The position numbers and the translations under genes were made by a program. From a virus (taxonomy: Duplodnaviria > Heunggongvirae > Uroviricota > Caudoviricetes), in IMG/VR virus record IMGVR_UViG_2690316152_000010: a stretch of 17,538 bases of DNA; one strand, given 5' to 3'. The stretch's first letter is position 1. Every line of letters begins with the position of its first letter. The notes beneath the pieces were generated by a model. The model did no database searches and was not told where the DNA came from. It saw nothing but the letters and a program-made list of their open reading frames with translations. Positions 1 through 17,538 of the stretch are shown here, in pieces.

Positions 1-141
1 TTACTGCTTACACTGTAAGAACGCCGCAAACTCCGCTCCCCAGAAGCTCATCCGTATTTCACACAGCGAACCGTGTAGCATCCAGATGATGAGGATTACC
101 GTCACGCAGAATGTGATGGCCGTAAGCGATTTTTGCGACAT
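1..141 (-). CDS. Hok/Gef-family small membrane toxin (type I toxin-antitoxin toxin), 46 aa
   Basis: Reverse-strand translation gives MSQKSLTAITFCVTVILIIWMLHGSLCEIRMSFWGAEFAAFLQCKQ: one hydrophobic helix followed by an SLCE(I/L) motif and an AAFL-C tail, as in Hok proteins. AGGAG Shine-Dalgarno 9 nt upstream of the ATG at 141. The stop codon is the first three bases of the window. Not in the supplied ORF track (below its size cutoff). Confidence 0.6.
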   Translation of the reverse strand: MSQKSLTAITFCVTVILIIWMLHGSLCEIRMSFWGAEFAAFLQCKQ

Positions 142-170
142 AGCGCTTGCTCCTTTGTTGGAGAGGCGCT
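142..170 (-). promoter_or_regulatory. Possible SD-sequestering stem-loop in the hok-like leader
   Basis: On the mRNA strand, AGCGCCTCTCC ... GGAGCAAGCGCT can pair (AGCGC/GCGCT plus CTCC/GGAG), burying the GGAG Shine-Dalgarno immediately upstream of the start codon. This is reminiscent of hok mRNA fold-back control. Pairing judged by eye only. Confidence 0.3.
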
Positions 171-332
171 AACCTATCACTTGCTTAAGGTAGATATGTT
201 AGGGCCTCGGTTAAACAGAAATGTTTTCCGGGGCCTTTCCACATCTGGCCTTCGGGTATTCCCTCCGACCATCAGCCGAAAGGCACCCGCGCGTAATCTA
301 TCGCTTTTTTGTTACTCCGGCAATTCTGCCTG

Positions 333-593
333 TTAATTCTGAGGTAAAGGCAAACTCATCTGATTGTTTCCCCTGTGTGAAGCTGGCAGCTCATGCCACG
401 GGATACCTTCTGAAGAGTGAACGCCGGAGGTGTGTTTTGATGTGAATTTATGGAAAGCTTCCAGTGTTGAGAAGCATACGCCGCATTCCAGGTTGTTACA
501 CTGGTAATACTTTTGCCGCACGGTGTTTGAATCATTTTCCGGACGACTGGTGCGGATACGGGCAGATGCGCCACAAAGCGGACAACGGAACAT
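333..593 (-). CDS. ogr: Ogr/Delta-family zinc-finger late-gene transcriptional activator
   Basis: N-terminus MFRCPLCGASARIRTSR...YYQCNNLECGVCF carries the CX2C-X(22-24)-CX4C arrangement and conserved RTSR motif of P2 Ogr / 186 B / P4 Delta. AAGGGAGG Shine-Dalgarno 7 nt upstream of the ATG at 593. Confidence 0.85.
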   Translation of the reverse strand: MFRCPLCGASARIRTSRPENDSNTVRQKYYQCNNLECGVCFSTLEAFHKFTSKHTSGVHSSEGIPWHELPASHRGNNQMSLPLPQN

Positions 594-1745: not shown

Positions 1746-1902
1746 CTGTTCCCTCCCTGTGCGGCATGGTCGCATGTGCGTGCGGAGGGGGTTACTGCTT
1801 TTTGTTGTCGCCGGATCGGGAGAACGGCACAGGGGTGAGATTACGCGCGTGGTGGGTGATGATTGTTGCCGAATCATTTAACGGATACAAGGGGCTAAAG
1901 CT

Positions 1903-3087
1903 ATGAGTGAAACTCGTTTTCATGGTGCCCGTGTTACGGAAAATACCGACCTGGTAACAGCGATTAACGATGTTGATTCCAGCGTTATCGGTATCGTGGC
2001 AACGGCGGATGATGCGGACGCGAAGCTGTTCCCGCTGAACAAGCCCACACTGCTGACCCGCGTCAATGACGTGCTGGGAAAATGCGGGACAACGGGGACG
2101 CTTTATCGTGCGCTTAAGGCCATCGCAGACCAGGTGAGCACAAAGGTGATCGTCGTTCGCGTGGCTGAACACAAAGAAGAAGACGGAAAGACGCAGGATC
2201 AACTGGTTATCGGTGGTTCTGAATCTGACGGCAGCTATACGGGGATGTATGCGCTGCTTGTTGCAGAGCAGGATGAAAGCATCGGATACCGTCCGCGTAT
2301 TCTGGCCGCGCCGGAGCTGGACACGGAGGCGGTGACAAAATCCCTGTGCGTGATTGCGGGTAAACTGCGCGCGTTTGTGTATGCCTCATGTCACGGCTGT
2401 AACACGATGGCTGAGGCGATTACCTACCGCCAGAAATTCAACGAACGTGAGGTGATGCTCTTATGGCCGGACTTCATCGCCTACAACCCGAAAAGTGGCA
2501 AAAACGAAACGTTCCCCGCGCCTGCCTATGCGTGCGGCCTTCGTGCGTACATTGACCATGAGCAGGGATGGCACAAATCACTGTCCAACGTTCCGGTTAA
2601 AAATGTGCTGGGGATGTCCAGGCATGTGTTCTGGTCGTTGCAGGCCGAAGACAGCGATGCCAATAGCCTCAACAACAAAGAAATCACGACCATTATTCGT
2701 CGCAACGGGTTCCGCTTCTGGGGCAACCGCACACCGGAAACGAACGCCTACATCTTTGAGGTGTATACCCGAACCGCACAGGTGCTGGCTGATTCAATTG
2801 CGGAAGCGCAGTTTGAAACCATCGACAGTCCACTGACGCCTGCGAACGTGAAAGATGTTATCAGTGCCATCAGGGCAAAACTGGATTCACTGGTTACTGC
2901 CGGGAAACTGATTGGGGCGTCGTGCTGGTATGACGTGGTGGATAACGGCACCACGAATTTACGTCAGGGGCGCGTGCGTATTCGCTACAAATATACGCCT
3001 GTTCCCCCGCTGGAAGACATGGAGCTTTACCAGTCGTTTACTGATGAATTCTTTGGTCCCGCATTTGCGGTGCTGGGAGGTGCCTGA
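1903..3087 (+). CDS. FI: Contractile tail sheath protein (P2 gpFI family)
   Basis: 394 aa, the size of P2 FI. Sits immediately upstream of the tube gene, with an AAGGGG Shine-Dalgarno before the ATG and a stop that overlaps the FII start (TGATG). Confidence 0.9.
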   Translation: MSETRFHGARVTENTDLVTAINDVDSSVIGIVATADDADAKLFPLNKPTLLTRVNDVLGKCGTTGTLYRALKAIADQVSTKVIVVRVAEHKEEDGKTQDQLVIGGSESDGSYTGMYALLVAEQDESIGYRPRILAAPELDTEAVTKSLCVIAGKLRAFVYASCHGCNTMAEAITYRQKFNEREVMLLWPDFIAYNPKSGKNETFPAPAYACGLRAYIDHEQGWHKSLSNVPVKNVLGMSRHVFWSLQAEDSDANSLNNKEITTIIRRNGFRFWGNRTPETNAYIFEVYTRTAQVLADSIAEAQFETIDSPLTPANVKDVISAIRAKLDSLVTAGKLIGASCWYDVVDNGTTNLRQGRVRIRYKYTPVPPLEDMELYQSFTDEFFGPAFAVLGGA

Positions 3088-3599
3088 TGGCTGTACCAAA
3101 ACATCTTCGCTTTTTTACGCTGTTTGTGGATGGTGAAAACGAAGTGGGTAAGGTGACGTCCGTCACGCCGCCCAAACTGACGCGCAAAACCGACAGCTAT
3201 CGTGGTGGTGGCATGATGGGGGCGGTAAGTATTGATCTCGGTCTGGACGACTCCGCGCTTGATGCGAGTTTTGTTATGGGGGGAGCTGTTCGTGCGCTGT
3301 TCCTTAAATATGGCGGCACGATTGACGGCACGCTGCTGCGTTTTGCGGGTGAATACTACACCGATGCAGAAAGCGATCTGTATGAAATCGAGATGCGCGG
3401 GCGTGTGACGGAAATTGATATGGGGGAGGCCAAACAGGGCGAAGCCACATCACACACTTACGCTGTCAAAAACACCTACTACAAGCTGAGCGTTAACGAT
3501 CGCCCGCTGTTGGAAATCGACCTGTTGAACCACATCTACCGGAAGGACGGCAAGGACATTGTGCCTGACCGCATTCGTTCCGCGCTTGGGCTTGGCTGA
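3087..3599 (+). CDS. FII: Tail tube protein (P2 gpFII family)
   Basis: 170 aa. Start overlaps the sheath stop. Position between sheath and the E/T chaperone and tape-measure genes matches the conserved sheath-tube-chaperone-tape measure order. Confidence 0.9.
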   Translation: MAVPKHLRFFTLFVDGENEVGKVTSVTPPKLTRKTDSYRGGGMMGAVSIDLGLDDSALDASFVMGGAVRALFLKYGGTIDGTLLRFAGEYYTDAESDLYEIEMRGRVTEIDMGEAKQGEATSHTYAVKNTYYKLSVNDRPLLEIDLLNHIYRKDGKDIVPDRIRSALGLG

Positions 3600-7495: not shown

Positions 7496-7525
7496 AAAAC
7501 CGCTAATGGTCAGATTAGCGGTTTT
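7496..7525. terminator. Bidirectional rho-independent terminator hairpin between U and the invertase
   Basis: Perfect 12-bp inverted repeat AAAACCGCTAAT / ATTAGCGGTTTT (7496-7507 and 7514-7525) with a 6-nt loop. A/T runs on both sides give a U-tract in either orientation. Sits 8 nt after the U stop and overlaps the invertase stop codon. Confidence 0.5.
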
Positions 7526-8114
7526 CATTTTCCTGAGTCTGTCTGGTTGTTTCTTCAGCCTGTATATCGCCTACAGGGTGATAACGATAAATCGTCGATA
7601 TGCCGATGTCGTAAATGATCGCCAGTTGTTTCCTGTCATGACCGTTTTTAATCAGCCTCGCTATTTGCTCGTGTTGTTCTTTTGTCAACTTCGGGCGACG
7701 TCCGCCAATGCGTCCTTGTGCGCGTGCTGCTGCCAGCCCGGCCAGTGTACGCTCTACAATTAATTCACGTTCCATTTCGGCTAAAGCCCCCATGACGTGA
7801 AAAAAGAAACGCCCCATGGGTGTTGACGTGTCAATGCTGTCCGTCAGACTACGGAAATTAACACCTTTTTCCCGCAATTCCTCAATAAGCGTGATCAGGT
7901 GTTTCATACTTCTGCCCAGTCTGTCCAGCTTCCAGACAACCAGCGTATCTCCTTCTGATAGCGTTCTGAGCAGTTTTTTCAATCCCGGTCTGGTTGATTT
8001 CGTTCCGCTGATTTTATCTTCAAAAATCAGTTCACATCCTGCGCAGTTCAGTGCATTGCGTTGTAAATCCGTGTTCTGGTCGTTTGTTGACACACGAATA
8101 TAGCCAATTTGCAT
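7515..8114 (-). CDS. Site-specific DNA invertase, serine recombinase of the Hin/Gin/Cin/Pin family
   Basis: Product starts MQIGYIRVSTNDQNTDLQRNAL and contains VVWKLDRLGRSMKHL, SLTDSIDTSTPMGRFFFHVMGALAEMERELI.ERT.AGLAAARA.GR.GGR.PKLT and a C-terminal helix-turn-helix region, all hallmark blocks of this family including the catalytic serine. AAAGAGGA Shine-Dalgarno upstream of the ATG at 8114. The track's 242-aa ORF is an upstream extension. Confidence 0.9.
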   Translation of the reverse strand: MQIGYIRVSTNDQNTDLQRNALNCAGCELIFEDKISGTKSTRPGLKKLLRTLSEGDTLVVWKLDRLGRSMKHLITLIEELREKGVNFRSLTDSIDTSTPMGRFFFHVMGALAEMERELIVERTLAGLAAARAQGRIGGRRPKLTKEQHEQIARLIKNGHDRKQLAIIYDIGISTIYRYHPVGDIQAEETTRQTQENENR

Positions 8115-8168
8115 AAAAAACATCCTCTTTGTTTCGTGAAAAATACAGAGTTGGTATAGGTAGGGATA

Positions 8169-8194
8169 AAAACGAAAACGTTGGTTTGGGGGAA
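8169..8194 (+). promoter_or_regulatory. Candidate invertase crossover site s1 at the 5' edge of cassette A
   Basis: AAAACGAAAACG-TT-GGTTTGGGGGAA. The right half and about 60 bp downstream are shared by every cassette junction. The AAACN-NN-GGTTT core resembles gix/hix/cix-type sites. The 26-bp boundaries are inferred, not demonstrated. Confidence 0.4.
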
Positions 8195-8647
8195 GGCTCT
8201 GCATTGCCTGTTGGTGTACCGGTTCCGTGGCCCACCGCCACACCGCCAGAAGGCTGGTTAAAGTGCGACGGGCGCGCCTTTACAAAAGAACAATATCCTG
8301 TTCTGGCCAGAGCCTACCCGACCCTCCGTCTTCCCGATTTACGCGGTGAATTTATTCGTGGCTGGGATGACGGACGTGGTGTGGATGCCGGGCGACAATT
8401 ATTATCTTCACAGGGGGATGCAATAAGAAATATTGAGGGATTCGCAGATGGCGGGATCGGTATGTCTTTTGATGCAATCAGAGGGGCTTTTTACGATGCA
8501 GGAACACGATCAGCGAGAATGCCGAATAACACAACTACTATAGACAAAACCGATGACCTTGGATTCGACGCCTCTCGTGTCGTGCCAACAGCTAATGAAA
8601 ACCGTCCTCGTAATATTGCCTTTAATTATATCGTAAGGGCGGCATAA
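8183..8647 (+). CDS. Promoterless tail-fibre C-terminal cassette A (alternative receptor-binding domain, tail-collar type)
   Basis: Open frame with no ATG start, beginning at the shared junction (GLGEGSALPVGVPVPWPTATPPEGWLKCDGRAFTKEQYPVLARAYPTL...LPDLRGEFIRGWDDGR) and ending ...RPRNIAFNYIVRAA*. Same N-terminal block and same end motif as the C-terminus of H. Confidence 0.75.
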   Translation, partial: GLGEGSALPVGVPVPWPTATPPEGWLKCDGRAFTKEQYPVLARAYPTLRLPDLRGEFIRGWDDGRGVDAGRQLLSSQGDAIRNIEGFADGGIGMSFDAIRGAFYDAGTRSARMPNNTTTIDKTDDLGFDASRVVPTANENRPRNIAFNYIVRAA

Positions 8648-8666
8648 AAACGTTGGTTTGGGGGAA
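8641..8666 (+). promoter_or_regulatory. Candidate invertase crossover site s2 at the 5' edge of cassette B
   Basis: GGCATAAAAACG-TT-GGTTTGGGGGAA, same core and downstream conserved block as s1 and s3. It overlaps the cassette A stop codon. Confidence 0.4.
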
Positions 8667-9131
8667 GGCTCTGCATTGCCTGTTGGTGTACCGGTTCCAT
8701 GGCCCACCGCCACACCGCCAGCAGGCTGGTTACAGTGCAACGGAGCTACGTTCACCAAAGAACAATATCCTGTTCTGGCCAGAGTCTACCCGACCCTCAG
8801 TCTTCCCGATTTACGCGGTGAGTTTATCCGTGGATGGGACGACGGGCGCAAGATTGACGAGGGGCGTAAGTTGCTTTCATGGCAGAAAGGTACACTGGTC
8901 GGCGGTCATGACGATAACGATTCTGCGCTTGATATCTCGTACATGAGTAACGGAAATAATATTGACTATGGCGGCGATAAGGTGTTTGCGGGGAATTACC
9001 GTAGCGATTATTTGTGGTACGCAATACTGGGTGGAACAAACAGTCGCGCAAAAGCCGAATTAAACGGAGCATTCTTTAACATAACCCGCCCCCGCAATAT
9101 CGCGTTTAACTATATCGTGAGGGCGGCGTGA
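8655..9131 (+). CDS. Promoterless tail-fibre C-terminal cassette B (alternative receptor-binding domain, tail-collar type)
   Basis: Starts with the shared junction block (GEGSALPVGVPVPWPTATPPAGWLQCNGATFTKEQYPVLARVYPTLSLPDLRGEFIRGWDDGRKIDEGRKLL), then a distinct distal domain, then ...RPRNIAFNYIVRAA*. No ATG start; the 'M' in the ORF track is a TTG. Confidence 0.75.
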   Translation, partial: GLGEGSALPVGVPVPWPTATPPAGWLQCNGATFTKEQYPVLARVYPTLSLPDLRGEFIRGWDDGRKIDEGRKLLSWQKGTLVGGHDDNDSALDISYMSNGNNIDYGGDKVFAGNYRSDYLWYAILGGTNSRAKAELNGAFFNITRPRNIAFNYIVRAA

Positions 9132-9137
9132 TACCGT

Positions 9138-9285
9138 TCAACTGGCAAGTGCCAGTGGCGCTTCCGGCCAGCTGATTTCAGGTGCCGTGCTGATATCCAG
9201 TGCGTTCAGCTCGTCGATATAATCCAGCACGGCGTTCAGTTTTGCCGTTTCTTCTGGTGTCAGACTGCGACCAGCACGCAGTTAA
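9138..9285 (-). pseudogene. 3' remnant of a tail-fibre assembly (tfa) gene: last ~48 codons only
   Basis: Exact reverse complement of the 3' end of the intact tfa (16430-16577). On its own strand the frame is closed by an in-frame TAA exactly where the homology ends, with no start codon. Confidence 0.7.
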
Positions 9286-15963: not shown

Positions 15964-16577
15964 TGAGTAACACTGCAGTTCTGGATGAAAACGGTATCGC
16001 CACTGTAGCGGGCGATATCACTGTATATCACTATGACGAGGAAACCCGGGAATACACCTCATCCTCTGTGGAGTATCTCGCCCTTGGGGTGGGTACTCCG
16101 GCACATTCGTGCGCCGATGCACCGCCGGAGGCAATTTCGGGTTACGTGGTTTGCCGGACTGCCACGCTGAACGGGTGGGAGCATGTGCCTGATCACCGCG
16201 GCGAGACGGTATACAGCACGGAGAACGGTAACCCTGTTCTGATTACCCAACCGGGTGATTACCCGGCGGACACCACCACAAAACAGCCAGCCACGCCATG
16301 GGATACCTGGAACGGTGAGGCGTGGGTAACCGATACTGAACGGCAGCGAGCCGCAGAACTGGAGGTTGCCAGACAGCAACGCCAGCAACGGGTGAAACAG
16401 GCGATGGCGTCCGTCGATCTTATCAACCTCAAACTGCGTGCTGGTCGCAGTCTGACACCAGAAGAAACGGCAAAACTGAACGCCGTGCTGGATTATATCG
16501 ACGAGCTGAACGCACTGGATATCAGCACGGCACCTGAAATCAGCTGGCCGGAAGCGCCACTGGCACTTGCCAGTTGA
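15963..16577 (+). CDS. Tail fibre assembly chaperone (Tfa / P2 gpG / Mu U-like)
   Basis: 204 aa, directly after H with a TAATG stop/start overlap. C-terminal ...LTPEE.AKLNAVLDYIDELNALDISTAPEISWPE.P is typical of Tfa-family chaperones. Confidence 0.8.
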   Translation: MSNTAVLDENGIATVAGDITVYHYDEETREYTSSSVEYLALGVGTPAHSCADAPPEAISGYVVCRTATLNGWEHVPDHRGETVYSTENGNPVLITQPGDYPADTTTKQPATPWDTWNGEAWVTDTERQRAAELEVARQQRQQRVKQAMASVDLINLKLRAGRSLTPEETAKLNAVLDYIDELNALDISTAPEISWPEAPLALAS

Positions 16578-16583
16578 ACGGTA

Positions 16584-17060
16584 TCACGCCGCCCTCACGA
16601 TATAGTTAAACGCGATATTGCGGGGGCGGGTTATGTTAAAGAATGCTCCGTTTAATTCGGCTTTTGCGCGACTGTTTGTTCCACCCAGTATTGCGTACCA
16701 CAAATAATCGCTACGGTAATTCCCCGCAAACACCTTATCGCCGCCATAGTCAATATTATTTCCGTTACTCATGTACGAGATATCAAGCGCAGAATCGTTA
16801 TCGTCATGACCGCCGACCAGTGTACCTTTCTGCCATGAAAGCAACTTACGCCCCTCGTCAATCTTGCGCCCGTCGTCCCATCCACGGATAAACTCACCGC
16901 GTAAATCGGGAAGACTGAGGGTCGGGTAGACTCTGGCCAGAACAGGATATTGTTCTTTGGTGAACGTAGCTCCGTTGCACTGTAACCAGCCTGCTGGCGG
17001 TGTGGCGGTGGGCCATGGAACCGGTACACCAACAGGCAATGCAGAGCCTTCCCCCAAACC
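16584..17060 (-). CDS. Inverted copy of tail-fibre cassette B (promoterless variable C-terminal domain)
   Basis: Encoded 157-aa sequence is identical to 8658-9131. Converges on the tfa stop, 6 nt away. Confidence 0.75.
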   Translation of the reverse strand, partial: GLGEGSALPVGVPVPWPTATPPAGWLQCNGATFTKEQYPVLARVYPTLSLPDLRGEFIRGWDDGRKIDEGRKLLSWQKGTLVGGHDDNDSALDISYMSNGNNIDYGGDKVFAGNYRSDYLWYAILGGTNSRAKAELNGAFFNITRPRNIAFNYIVRAA

Positions 17061-17074
17061 AACGTTTTTATGCC
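17049..17074 (-). promoter_or_regulatory. Candidate invertase crossover site s4 (inverted copy of s2)
   Basis: Mirror image of 8641-8666 within the inverted repeat. Confidence 0.4.
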
Positions 17075-17532
17075 GCCCTTACGATATAATTAAAGGCAAT
17101 ATTACGAGGACGGTTTTCATTAGCTGTTGGCACGACACGAGAGGCGTCGAATCCAAGGTCATCGGTTTTGTCTATAGTAGTTGTGTTATTCGGCATTCTC
17201 GCTGATCGTGTTCCTGCATCGTAAAAAGCCCCTCTGATTGCATCAAAAGACATACCGATCCCGCCATCTGCGAATCCCTCAATATTTCTTATTGCATCCC
17301 CCTGTGAAGATAATAATTGTCGCCCGGCATCCACACCACGTCCGTCATCCCAGCCACGAATAAATTCACCGCGTAAATCGGGAAGACGGAGGGTCGGGTA
17401 GGCTCTGGCCAGAACAGGATATTGTTCTTTTGTAAAGGCGCGCCCGTCGCACTTTAACCAGCCTTCTGGCGGTGTGGCGGTGGGCCACGGAACCGGTACA
17501 CCAACAGGCAATGCAGAGCCTTCCCCCAAACC
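17068..17532 (-). CDS. Inverted copy of tail-fibre cassette A (promoterless variable C-terminal domain)
   Basis: Encoded sequence is identical to cassette A (8183-8647). Confidence 0.75.
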   Translation of the reverse strand, partial: GLGEGSALPVGVPVPWPTATPPEGWLKCDGRAFTKEQYPVLARAYPTLRLPDLRGEFIRGWDDGRGVDAGRQLLSSQGDAIRNIEGFADGGIGMSFDAIRGAFYDAGTRSARMPNNTTTIDKTDDLGFDASRVVPTANENRPRNIAFNYIVRAA

Positions 17533-17538
17533 AACGTT
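17521..17538 (-). promoter_or_regulatory. Candidate invertase crossover site s5 (inverted copy of s1), truncated by the window end
   Basis: Mirror image of 8177-8194. The outer half-site lies beyond the window. Confidence 0.3.

Follow-up and report, generated by a model that had tools for sequence, protein, structure and literature searches.

The start of the window, by which we mean the whole 17,538-nt stretch of tailed-phage DNA analysed here (IMG/VR record IMGVR_UViG_2690316152_000010), raises the question of whether a short minus-strand reading frame beside ogr encodes a Hok toxin and how the synthesis of such a toxin would be controlled. A first-pass annotation had proposed a 46-codon Hok/Gef-like gene with a strong Shine-Dalgarno (SD) sequence and a hairpin sequestering it, had found neither a mok frame nor a sok promoter, and had suggested that regulation may differ from that of canonical hok/sok systems. 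The frame and its neighbour are located as follows.

Positions 1-141, minus strand: hok coding sequence, 46 aa, MSQKSLTAITFCVTVILIIWMLHGSLCEIRMSFWGAEFAAFLQCKQ; ATG start at 141-139, stop codon at 3-1, the edge of the window.
Positions 333-593, minus strand: ogr, late-gene activator (Pfam Ogr_Delta, 52.4 bits, and RefSeq); next gene after hok and followed by gpD, its stop 10 nt from the hok −35.

The 46-codon frame was present in the ORF list, and its product scored 30.1 bits against PF01848 (HOK_GEF; gathering cut-off 22), with residues 7-44 aligned on profile positions 5-42 of 42. Hok/Gef peptides are recognized by a length of about 50 aa, an N-terminal hydrophobic helix and a C-terminal L-C-E ... 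E-x-A-A motif, and these features were found in the 46-aa peptide. The peptide also matched PHROG 251 ('MokW-like host killing', moron category) with 82.8 bits. Over 31 residues it shared 39% identity, and the SLCEIR and AAF motifs, with R1-type Hok; it was 38% identical to a HokA-like sequence, and it aligned with both across SLCE.R ... E.AAF. A database search brought up 68 relatives, almost all of 46 aa, in E. coli, Shigella, Salmonella and Klebsiella; their source records call them 'Hok/Gef family protein'. Residues G24, C27, E28, E37, A39 and A40 were invariant in 25 members of the subfamily, across which the median dN/dS of the peptide was 0.21 (example pair against L076: dN 0.009, dS 0.40). 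Judged by these comparisons, the peptide is a member of the Hok/Gef toxin family under purifying selection; the family search that had been named as a check on the first assignment placed it in Hok/Gef by Pfam, PHROG 251 and RefSeq alike.

Within that family, orthology to HokA was rejected, as the score against NCBIfam NF007290 was 35.8 bits (equivalog cut-off 89). The generic Hok model NF007279 gave 23.6 bits (cut-off 73). Since both scores fell far below their cut-offs, the peptide represents a distinct Hok subfamily rather than HokA. Identity with HokW was likewise rejected despite the 'MokW-like' label in RefSeq and PHROG, HokW being a different, 51-aa peptide (MKQQKAM...). No family model in PADLOC-DB matched the peptide at E ≤ 0.1, and a sequence search of the PDB with the peptide gave no matches. 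The exact peptide is sequence 1628, in cluster 72, of a survey of Hok peptides in which 42 of 45 tested peptides were toxic (Escalera-Maurer et al., bioRxiv 10.1101/2025.08.07.668861). The tested set included 72_1621, which differs from the window peptide by V16A, and 72_1589, the Stx-phage variant, and neither is among the three peptides named as non-toxic; the evidence for toxicity thus comes from near neighbours, the window's exact 46-aa peptide lying outside the tested set. The same survey reports that hok is enriched in prophages, and places mok, Sok and mRNA ends expressly outside its analysis.

The gene had been described as unannotated, which was accurate for the ORF track then consulted but not for RefSeq: in E. 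coli FORC_069, where a 340-bp region is 100% identical, PGAP annotates the identical gene as WP_000078920.1, 'Hok/Gef family protein', adjoining ogr. Matches to the locus were found in 1544 of 5426 complete E. coli genomes. The locus is 99.1% identical in phage P88 (Xuanwuvirus, Peduoviridae), many Stx2a phages carry a copy that is ~85% identical, and P88-like phages share 92-95% identity with the first 8.1 kb of the window. The reported position of hok next to ogr is confirmed, and the prophage is P2-like. The cassette is flanked by ogr and the prophage end, with the tRNA-Gly/Cys/Leu cluster of FORC_069 ~1 kb further out, and a second, clearly decayed hok copy lies ~700 nt away in the identical genome. 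The ogr-hok adjacency recurs in a Salmonella P2-like prophage whose Hok is only 61% identical. Other members of the subfamily occur at the tail-fibre end of another prophage, in Stx phages and near a relaxase gene, some as tandem pairs and some adjoining other toxin-antitoxin (TA) genes; such varied settings are the pattern of a mobile moron cassette. No P2 late-promoter dyad (TGT-N12-ACA) that would place hok under Ogr control was found near 280-420, and the four matches elsewhere in the window compare with 4.5 expected.

Overall, the locus is an ordinary type I TA locus of the Hok/Sok type, already annotated and catalogued. It is very probably a hok/sok-family cassette (cluster 72, PHROG 251), a moron of a P88-like (Xuanwuvirus, P2-family) prophage, in which it lies between ogr and the attachment site. 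As to its existence the finding adds little, since prophage Hok toxins have been annotated, catalogued and partly tested. What the locus adds concerns the leader, the elements of which on the hok strand are listed here.

Positions 295-323, minus strand: predicted hok promoter; −35 TTGCCG at 323-318, 17-nt spacer, −10 TAGATT at 300-295, then 6 nt to G288.
Positions 142-288, minus strand: hok mRNA 5′ leader, 147 nt, with predicted 5′ end G288 and tac at ~274-288 (GGGUGCCUUUCGGCU).
Positions 141-171, minus strand: SD-sequestering hairpin; outer stem UAGCGC/GCGCUA, anti-SD CUCC at 163-160 pairing with GGAG at 153-150.
Positions 150-155, minus strand: hok SD, AAGGAG, spaced 8 nt from the ATG; R1-type hok, hokB and hokC have AAGGAG at the aligned place.

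The leader had been put at ~190 bp. The transcribed leader is predicted to be 147 nt (288 to 142), positions 289-332 being occupied by the hok promoter and the 10-nt gap after the ogr stop. The −10 region GATAGAT(T/A) is retained in most relatives, and the flanks further upstream are unrelated. Both this promoter and the Sok promoter described below were placed by homology with R1, each agreeing with consensus at only 6-8 of 12 positions, and a generic sigma-70 scan called neither the hok promoter nor the Sok promoter on the plus strand of the leader. Rfam RF01794 ('sok') matched positions 288-131 of the minus strand over the full model (1-157) with 47.9 bits (E 1.9e-9), below the gathering score of 59; relatives scored 38-57 bits and the R1-type locus 87 bits. 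In the R1-type locus the match falls on the sense strand of hok and runs from the 5′ end of the mRNA as far as the ATG. RF01794 therefore really models the hok leader containing the Sok target.

The window breaks off at the hok stop codon, which put the fbi element and the terminator out of sight of the first-pass annotation. The 125 nt that follow in the identical genome (L002) include a stable hairpin (GACGGGGGAGCAAUCCCCCGUC), then the sequence GGCUGAAGUGGCACCC and an intrinsic terminator, which the generic scan called outside the window. The full-length mRNA of ~409 nt had a predicted folding energy of −174.6 kcal/mol (z −8.1), and 15 pairs close it by joining the 5′ end to fbi. In both the MFE and the centroid folds, the 5′ end (GGGUGCCUUUCGGCU) pairs with GGCUGAAGUGGCACCC as a tac/fbi fold-back, the 3′ half of which was read from L002.

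We aligned 39 non-redundant mRNAs of the subfamily, from loci in E. coli, E. albertii, Salmonella, Citrobacter and Klebsiella, and RNAalifold recovered the same long-range helix. A structure made up of tac/fbi, the 5′ hairpin, the Sok-target hairpin, the SD hairpin and the 3′ hairpin was then scored for covariation. According to this analysis, 98.3% of alignment cells were paired, as against 34-49% when the partners were slid by 1-3 columns; double changes occurred in eleven pairs, and the covariation score was reached by 0 of 500 shuffles. The tac/fbi pairing comprised seven invariant or wobble pairs and four with compensatory changes. In its inner helix (helix 2), all four pairs switch (UA/CG, CG/GC, GC/AU) between the E. 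coli and Salmonella clades. This clade structure means that the independent covariation events are few; the slid-partner control, which keeps relatedness, still collapses. The hok mRNA (~410 nt) is thus predicted to close on itself through a tac/fbi helix kept by compensatory changes.

The leader can be aligned element by element with those of R1 (parB) and of hokB/mokB/sokB and hokC/mokC/sokC of E. coli K-12. Common to all are the 5′ GGGUGCC of tac, the mok-SD region AACCGAGGCC, the GCCUCU anti-SD and AAGGAG. The fold-back of the 5′ end on the 3′ end, the 3′ hairpin followed by fbi and the terminator, and the placing of a predicted Sok promoter across the complement of the hok SD are shared as well. 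Unlike in these systems, the peptide is short (46 versus 50-52 aa) and mok is missing, with AUA in place of their AUG at −57/−58. At the protein level, nothing distinguishes the gene from cluster 72, PHROG 251 or WP_000078920.1; the mok-less layout is not covered by the survey. The antisense side of the leader was as follows.

Positions 147-175, plus strand: predicted Sok promoter; −35 TTGCTC at 147-152, 17-nt spacer, −10 TAACCT at 170-175, laid out as in R1.
Positions 183-240, plus strand: predicted Sok RNA, ~56-64 nt with putative ends; start near G183, stem-loop 201-237, short U tail 236-238.

In the R1-type locus (L003), the Sok promoter reads TTGCGC-17-TATCCT, with its −35 on the complement of the hok SD region. 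The complement of the predicted −10, AGGTTAG, was invariant or near-invariant among the 39 sequences, and some alleles carried exactly TATCCT. The predicted Sok has an ~18-nt single-stranded 5′ tail and a 10-bp stem with an inner hairpin (201-237), folding at −22.7 kcal/mol (z −3.6). Its stem was more stable than the corresponding hok-strand stem in every one of the 39 relatives (median −21.5 versus −14.2 kcal/mol), because what is an invariant C.A mismatch in the hok-strand stem reads as a U.G pair in its antisense counterpart. Measured from the start codon of hok, the predicted Sok would span −42 to ~−100, as compared with −48 to ~−105 for the annotated sokB and sokC.

From this evidence we strongly infer a cis-antisense Sok RNA gene in the hok leader. 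The first-pass annotation had missed it, and the search it proposed for an antisense promoter and terminator on the plus strand was negative by generic scan, but by position it yielded a predicted homologue of the R1 promoter and the stem-loop at 201-237. With this Sok homologue and the tac/fbi fold-back, regulation is therefore probably largely canonical; the different scheme that had been suggested is not called for. Plus-strand ORFs over the leader (133-336 and 221-445) were regarded as chance ORFs.

The two features of the hok start that had been noted both held. The SD is AAGGAG at 155-150 with a spacing of 8 nt, and leader folding extended the hairpin, first drawn at 142-170, to 171-141. 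This hairpin folded at −14.2 kcal/mol (z = −2.55), which 3 of 200 shuffles equalled. Its outer stem was 99.5% paired among the 39 relatives, but the changes in it were only one-sided, from G-C to G-U. By partition-function folding, the probability that the SD is unpaired was at most 0.016; accessibility was computed in the full-length mRNA, two 3′-truncated forms, the nascent leader and an mRNA with its Sok target blocked. As the SD is buried in every predicted conformer, the hairpin must be opened by something.

In R1, that role falls to the ribosome translating mok; translation of mok up to at least the hok SD is mandatory for Hok synthesis and stop codons placed in mok upstream of the hok start abolish toxicity (PMC9841398). 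The region of the leader in which mok would start is given here.

Positions 195-208, minus strand: vestigial mok initiation region; GAGG at 208-205, 7-nt spacer, AUA at 197-195 at the mok-AUG site, the frame stopping at UGA 179-177.

Run with the same script as positive controls, the R1-type, hokC and hokB leaders each had an ATG at −57/−58, 7-8 nt after GAGG, and mok frames of 55-71 codons that cross the hok start; the K-12 hokA leader, disrupted by IS150, was unusable as a control. By contrast, AUA stands at −56 in the window, and each of the three frames is closed before the hok SD, by stops at −46, −35 and −30. This confirms the reported absence of a classical overlapping mok frame. ATG, GTG or TTG was found at the mok-start site in none of the 39 relatives, and 23 of them have no canonical-start ORF that reaches the hok SD. 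In the remaining 16 alleles, such an ORF reaches the hok SD or beyond from starts that are not homologous, mostly upstream ATGs at −130 or −103 and otherwise assorted GTGs and TTGs, in a frame opened largely by 1-nt indels. A 31-codon ORF at 272-177 of the minus strand and ATGs at −131 and −103 were considered as mok candidates and rejected: their conservation does not extend to the Salmonella clade, and 1-nt indels switch the frame that they take relative to hok. As far as the alignment goes, mok is not conserved across the subfamily. By analogy with the R1 requirement, a mok-less copy could be poorly translatable. The mok-less layout is a minor regulatory variant, apparently undescribed, and the only mildly novel point of the locus.

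Three short frames begin at or near the vestigial site, and bear on how the hairpin might be opened.

Positions 197-195, minus strand: AUA, candidate mini-ORF start, 6 codons, stop UGA 179-177.
Positions 195-193, minus strand: AUC, candidate mini-ORF start, 8 codons.
Positions 180-178, minus strand: GUG, candidate mini-ORF start, 3 codons.

The AUC and GUG frames both stop at UAG 171-169, the first bases of the hairpin. A more far-reaching reading, which we put forward tentatively and would not call probable, is that the whole cluster-72 subfamily (from E. coli, Shigella, Salmonella, Citrobacter and Klebsiella; in P2-like and lambdoid prophages and a relaxase-bearing element) works without mok, that Sok still targets the vestigial mok initiation region, and that Hok is made from its own hairpin-buried SD by way of standby ribosomes or a near-cognate mini-ORF. 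By homology with R1, the full-length hok mRNA would be inert, and slow 3′ trimming would remove fbi and refold the 5′ end. Sok (~60 nt), made from TTGCTC-17-TAACCT on the plus strand, would pair with leader nt 49-106, again by homology, and its pairing with the trimmed mRNA would lead to decay by RNase III. Should sok transcription stop, because the prophage is lost or an infecting phage shuts off the host, Sok, being unstable, would be the first to decay; Hok would then be made and would depolarise the inner membrane. We infer the hok 5′ end, the Sok ends and the 3′ processing in this scheme.

The route to Hok synthesis without mok that completes the scheme is speculative. Our best guess, and one of low confidence, is that the hairpin is opened by ribosomes that load at the vestigial mok start region, so that hok is initiated at a low level. 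They might do so as standby ribosomes or by translating a near-cognate mini-ORF of 6-8 codons that ends at or just before the hairpin; a ribosome ending at 179-177 or 171-169 would melt the anti-SD arm with its footprint. In either mode, Sok covering 183-240 would block ribosome loading. Neither AUA nor AUC, the near-cognate codons, is conserved across the subfamily, which counts against this route.

It is also conceivable, though we consider it unlikely, that mok has been kept in miniature, a short upstream ORF being translated so that the terminating ribosome melts the anti-SD arm. This explanation overlaps the last step of the scheme above. It draws support from the GAGG and 7-nt spacer that precede AUA at the site of the mok AUG in R1, hokB and hokC, from stops located 6 nt before the hairpin or inside its base, and from alleles with AUU at the site and a 44-61 codon frame running through hok. 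Against it, AUA and AUC are very weak start codons, such a near-cognate codon (AUA or AUC) is missing in about half of the representatives, and GUG 180-178 has been lost in several. The R1 data cut both ways: mok translation is needed there only as far as the hok SD, but stops in mok upstream of the hok start abolish toxicity (PMC9841398).

An improbable alternative is that hok is decaying or silenced, in which case Hok would essentially never be made after the loss of mok and the cassette would hitch-hike on the prophage. The requirement for mok in R1 (PMC9841398) would fit this, as would a mok frame made polymorphic by 1-nt indels, with a canonical-start ORF reaching the hok SD in only 16 of 39 sequences, and the clearly decayed copy nearby. 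However, the dN/dS of 0.21, and dN of 0.009 beside a dS of 0.40 against L076, are those of a peptide under selection, and the promoters, tac/fbi, SD hairpin and 3′ hairpin are all intact and covary. Purifying selection together with the integrity of every RNA element argues against a dead locus. Moreover, loci in E. coli, Salmonella, Klebsiella and Citrobacter retain the mok-less layout in differing genomic surroundings.

Least credible of all is the suggestion of the first-pass annotation, taken to mean control without Sok, by mRNA folding alone (SD hairpin and fold-back) or by a trans-acting RNA encoded elsewhere: the generic sigma-70 scan left the plus strand of the leader without a promoter, the hexamers predicted for Sok are weak and a U tail of just 3 nt follows the stem, but the R1 Sok promoter TTGCGC-17-TATCCT is equally weak by consensus and yet functional, the hexamers are conserved to the point of exact TATCCT in some alleles, the change from C.A to U.G favours the antisense stem in all 39 relatives, and the leader is homologous throughout to those of loci with annotated Sok RNAs.

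Were the reading of a subfamily working without mok true, the rule that Hok synthesis requires mok translation would have a natural exception. The subfamily keeps the canonical mRNA elements except mok, and its peptide is selected, so that it offers a natural test of obligatory mok coupling, a question left open by the recent survey (bioRxiv 10.1101/2025.08.07.668861). In this window, as in many IMG/VR contigs, prophage-boundary callers end the locus at the stop codon of hok and thereby lose fbi and the terminator; regulation is unreadable from windows cut in this way.

A working type I TA system borne by a prophage has been described in hokW-sokW of the Stx2 prophage Sp5 (Takada et al. 2021, PMC8621323). 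Its Sok is complementary to the 5′ UTR of hok and requires RNase III and Hfq, and after induction the system helps the cell to lyse and phage to be released. This system resembles the present locus as a prophage-borne hok/sok system, but HokW has 51 aa and its phage is lambdoid, whereas the phage of the window is P2-like. Roles in prophage stabilisation or abortive infection, as first proposed for the window, are plausible; help in lysis, as for hokW-sokW in Sp5, would be another possible role.

A possible functional analogy for mok-less hok is the standby control of tisB by IstR-1. In tisB/istR-1, structure hides the SD of the toxin gene, and ribosomes first load far upstream of it, at the place to which the antitoxin RNA binds (reviewed in PMC4147584). 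The two systems have no sequence relationship, and IstR-1 is divergently encoded rather than cis-antisense. Further, tisB is activated by 5′ processing and hok by 3′ processing. With respect to the latter, the stable 3′ hairpin upstream of fbi, which covaries among the relatives, could halt exonucleolytic trimming.

Many IMG/VR viral contigs end, like the window, exactly 3 nt past the hok stop codon. These include L016, L021, L024, L025, L034, L037 and others (length 1641). The shared end indicates that prophage-boundary calls systematically remove the hok 3′ UTR, which contains the 3′ fold-back element of the mRNA (fbi) and the terminator. In phage P88, both of these elements are located within the phage genome.

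At the other end of the hok locus, the predicted −35 sequence of hok (323-318) lies only 10 nt from the stop codon of ogr (335-333). No terminator-like site was found between these two features (window 318-335). Given this short gap and the lack of a terminator-like site, ogr transcripts may read through into the hok leader. Read-through from Sok, in turn, would be antisense to the 3′ end of ogr.

We also compared the mok reading frame among canonical loci. In an R1-type plasmid variant (L003, 444-659) and in hokC (mokC of K-12), the mok ATG is at −57 and in frame with hok. In these loci, mok therefore encodes Hok with an N-terminal extension, instead of forming an ORF that overlaps hok in another frame. 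By contrast, mok of hokB is out of frame with hok. Thus, the frame of mok is loosely constrained even in canonical loci.

Further hok copies, and an sRNA gene adjacent to a related prophage, were identified in the following E. coli and Salmonella loci:

L002 (E. coli FORC_069), ~3040-3345, minus strand: second, decayed hok locus, lying outside the window and flanked by tRNA-Leu and the hok locus
L097 (Salmonella), 1501-1641 and 1991-2131: tandem pair of hok genes of cluster 72, the subfamily of the window's peptide
L098 (Salmonella), 1501-1641 and 1995-2135: tandem cluster-72 hok pair
L095 (Salmonella), 1795-1992, minus strand: STnc540, an enterobacterial sRNA (Rfam RF02082, 171.6 bits)

The decayed FORC_069 copy retains a −10-like sequence, GATAGATTA, a degenerate 5′ end, a degenerate Sok-target hairpin and the C-terminal ..GSLCEIRR.. 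portion of Hok. The Sok promoter, the SD of hok and the part of the gene encoding the N-terminal half of the toxin have been lost through an internal deletion of ~130 nt. This copy is probably the relic of an earlier prophage that occupied the same attachment site. In the Salmonella tandem pairs, the two copies are spaced by ~490 nt, each with a complete leader of its own, and a YafO-type toxin gene adjoins the pair in L098. STnc540 occurs directly past the end of the Salmonella ogr-hok prophage, where it neighbours an HU/IHF-like gene and one that contains domains of the phenylalanyl-tRNA synthetase beta subunit.

Elsewhere, the window contains a 1107-nt inverted repeat whose arms (8177-9283 and 16432-17538) are 100% complementary, the second arm reaching the window's final base. 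Both arms carry fragments of a tail-collar (PF07484) gene, and the first is abutted by an invertase gene:

7515-8243, minus strand: serine invertase (Resolvase + HTH_7)

The repeat represents either an invertible tail-fibre segment that was assembled in both orientations where the contig ends, or a large segment that is a true substrate for inversion.
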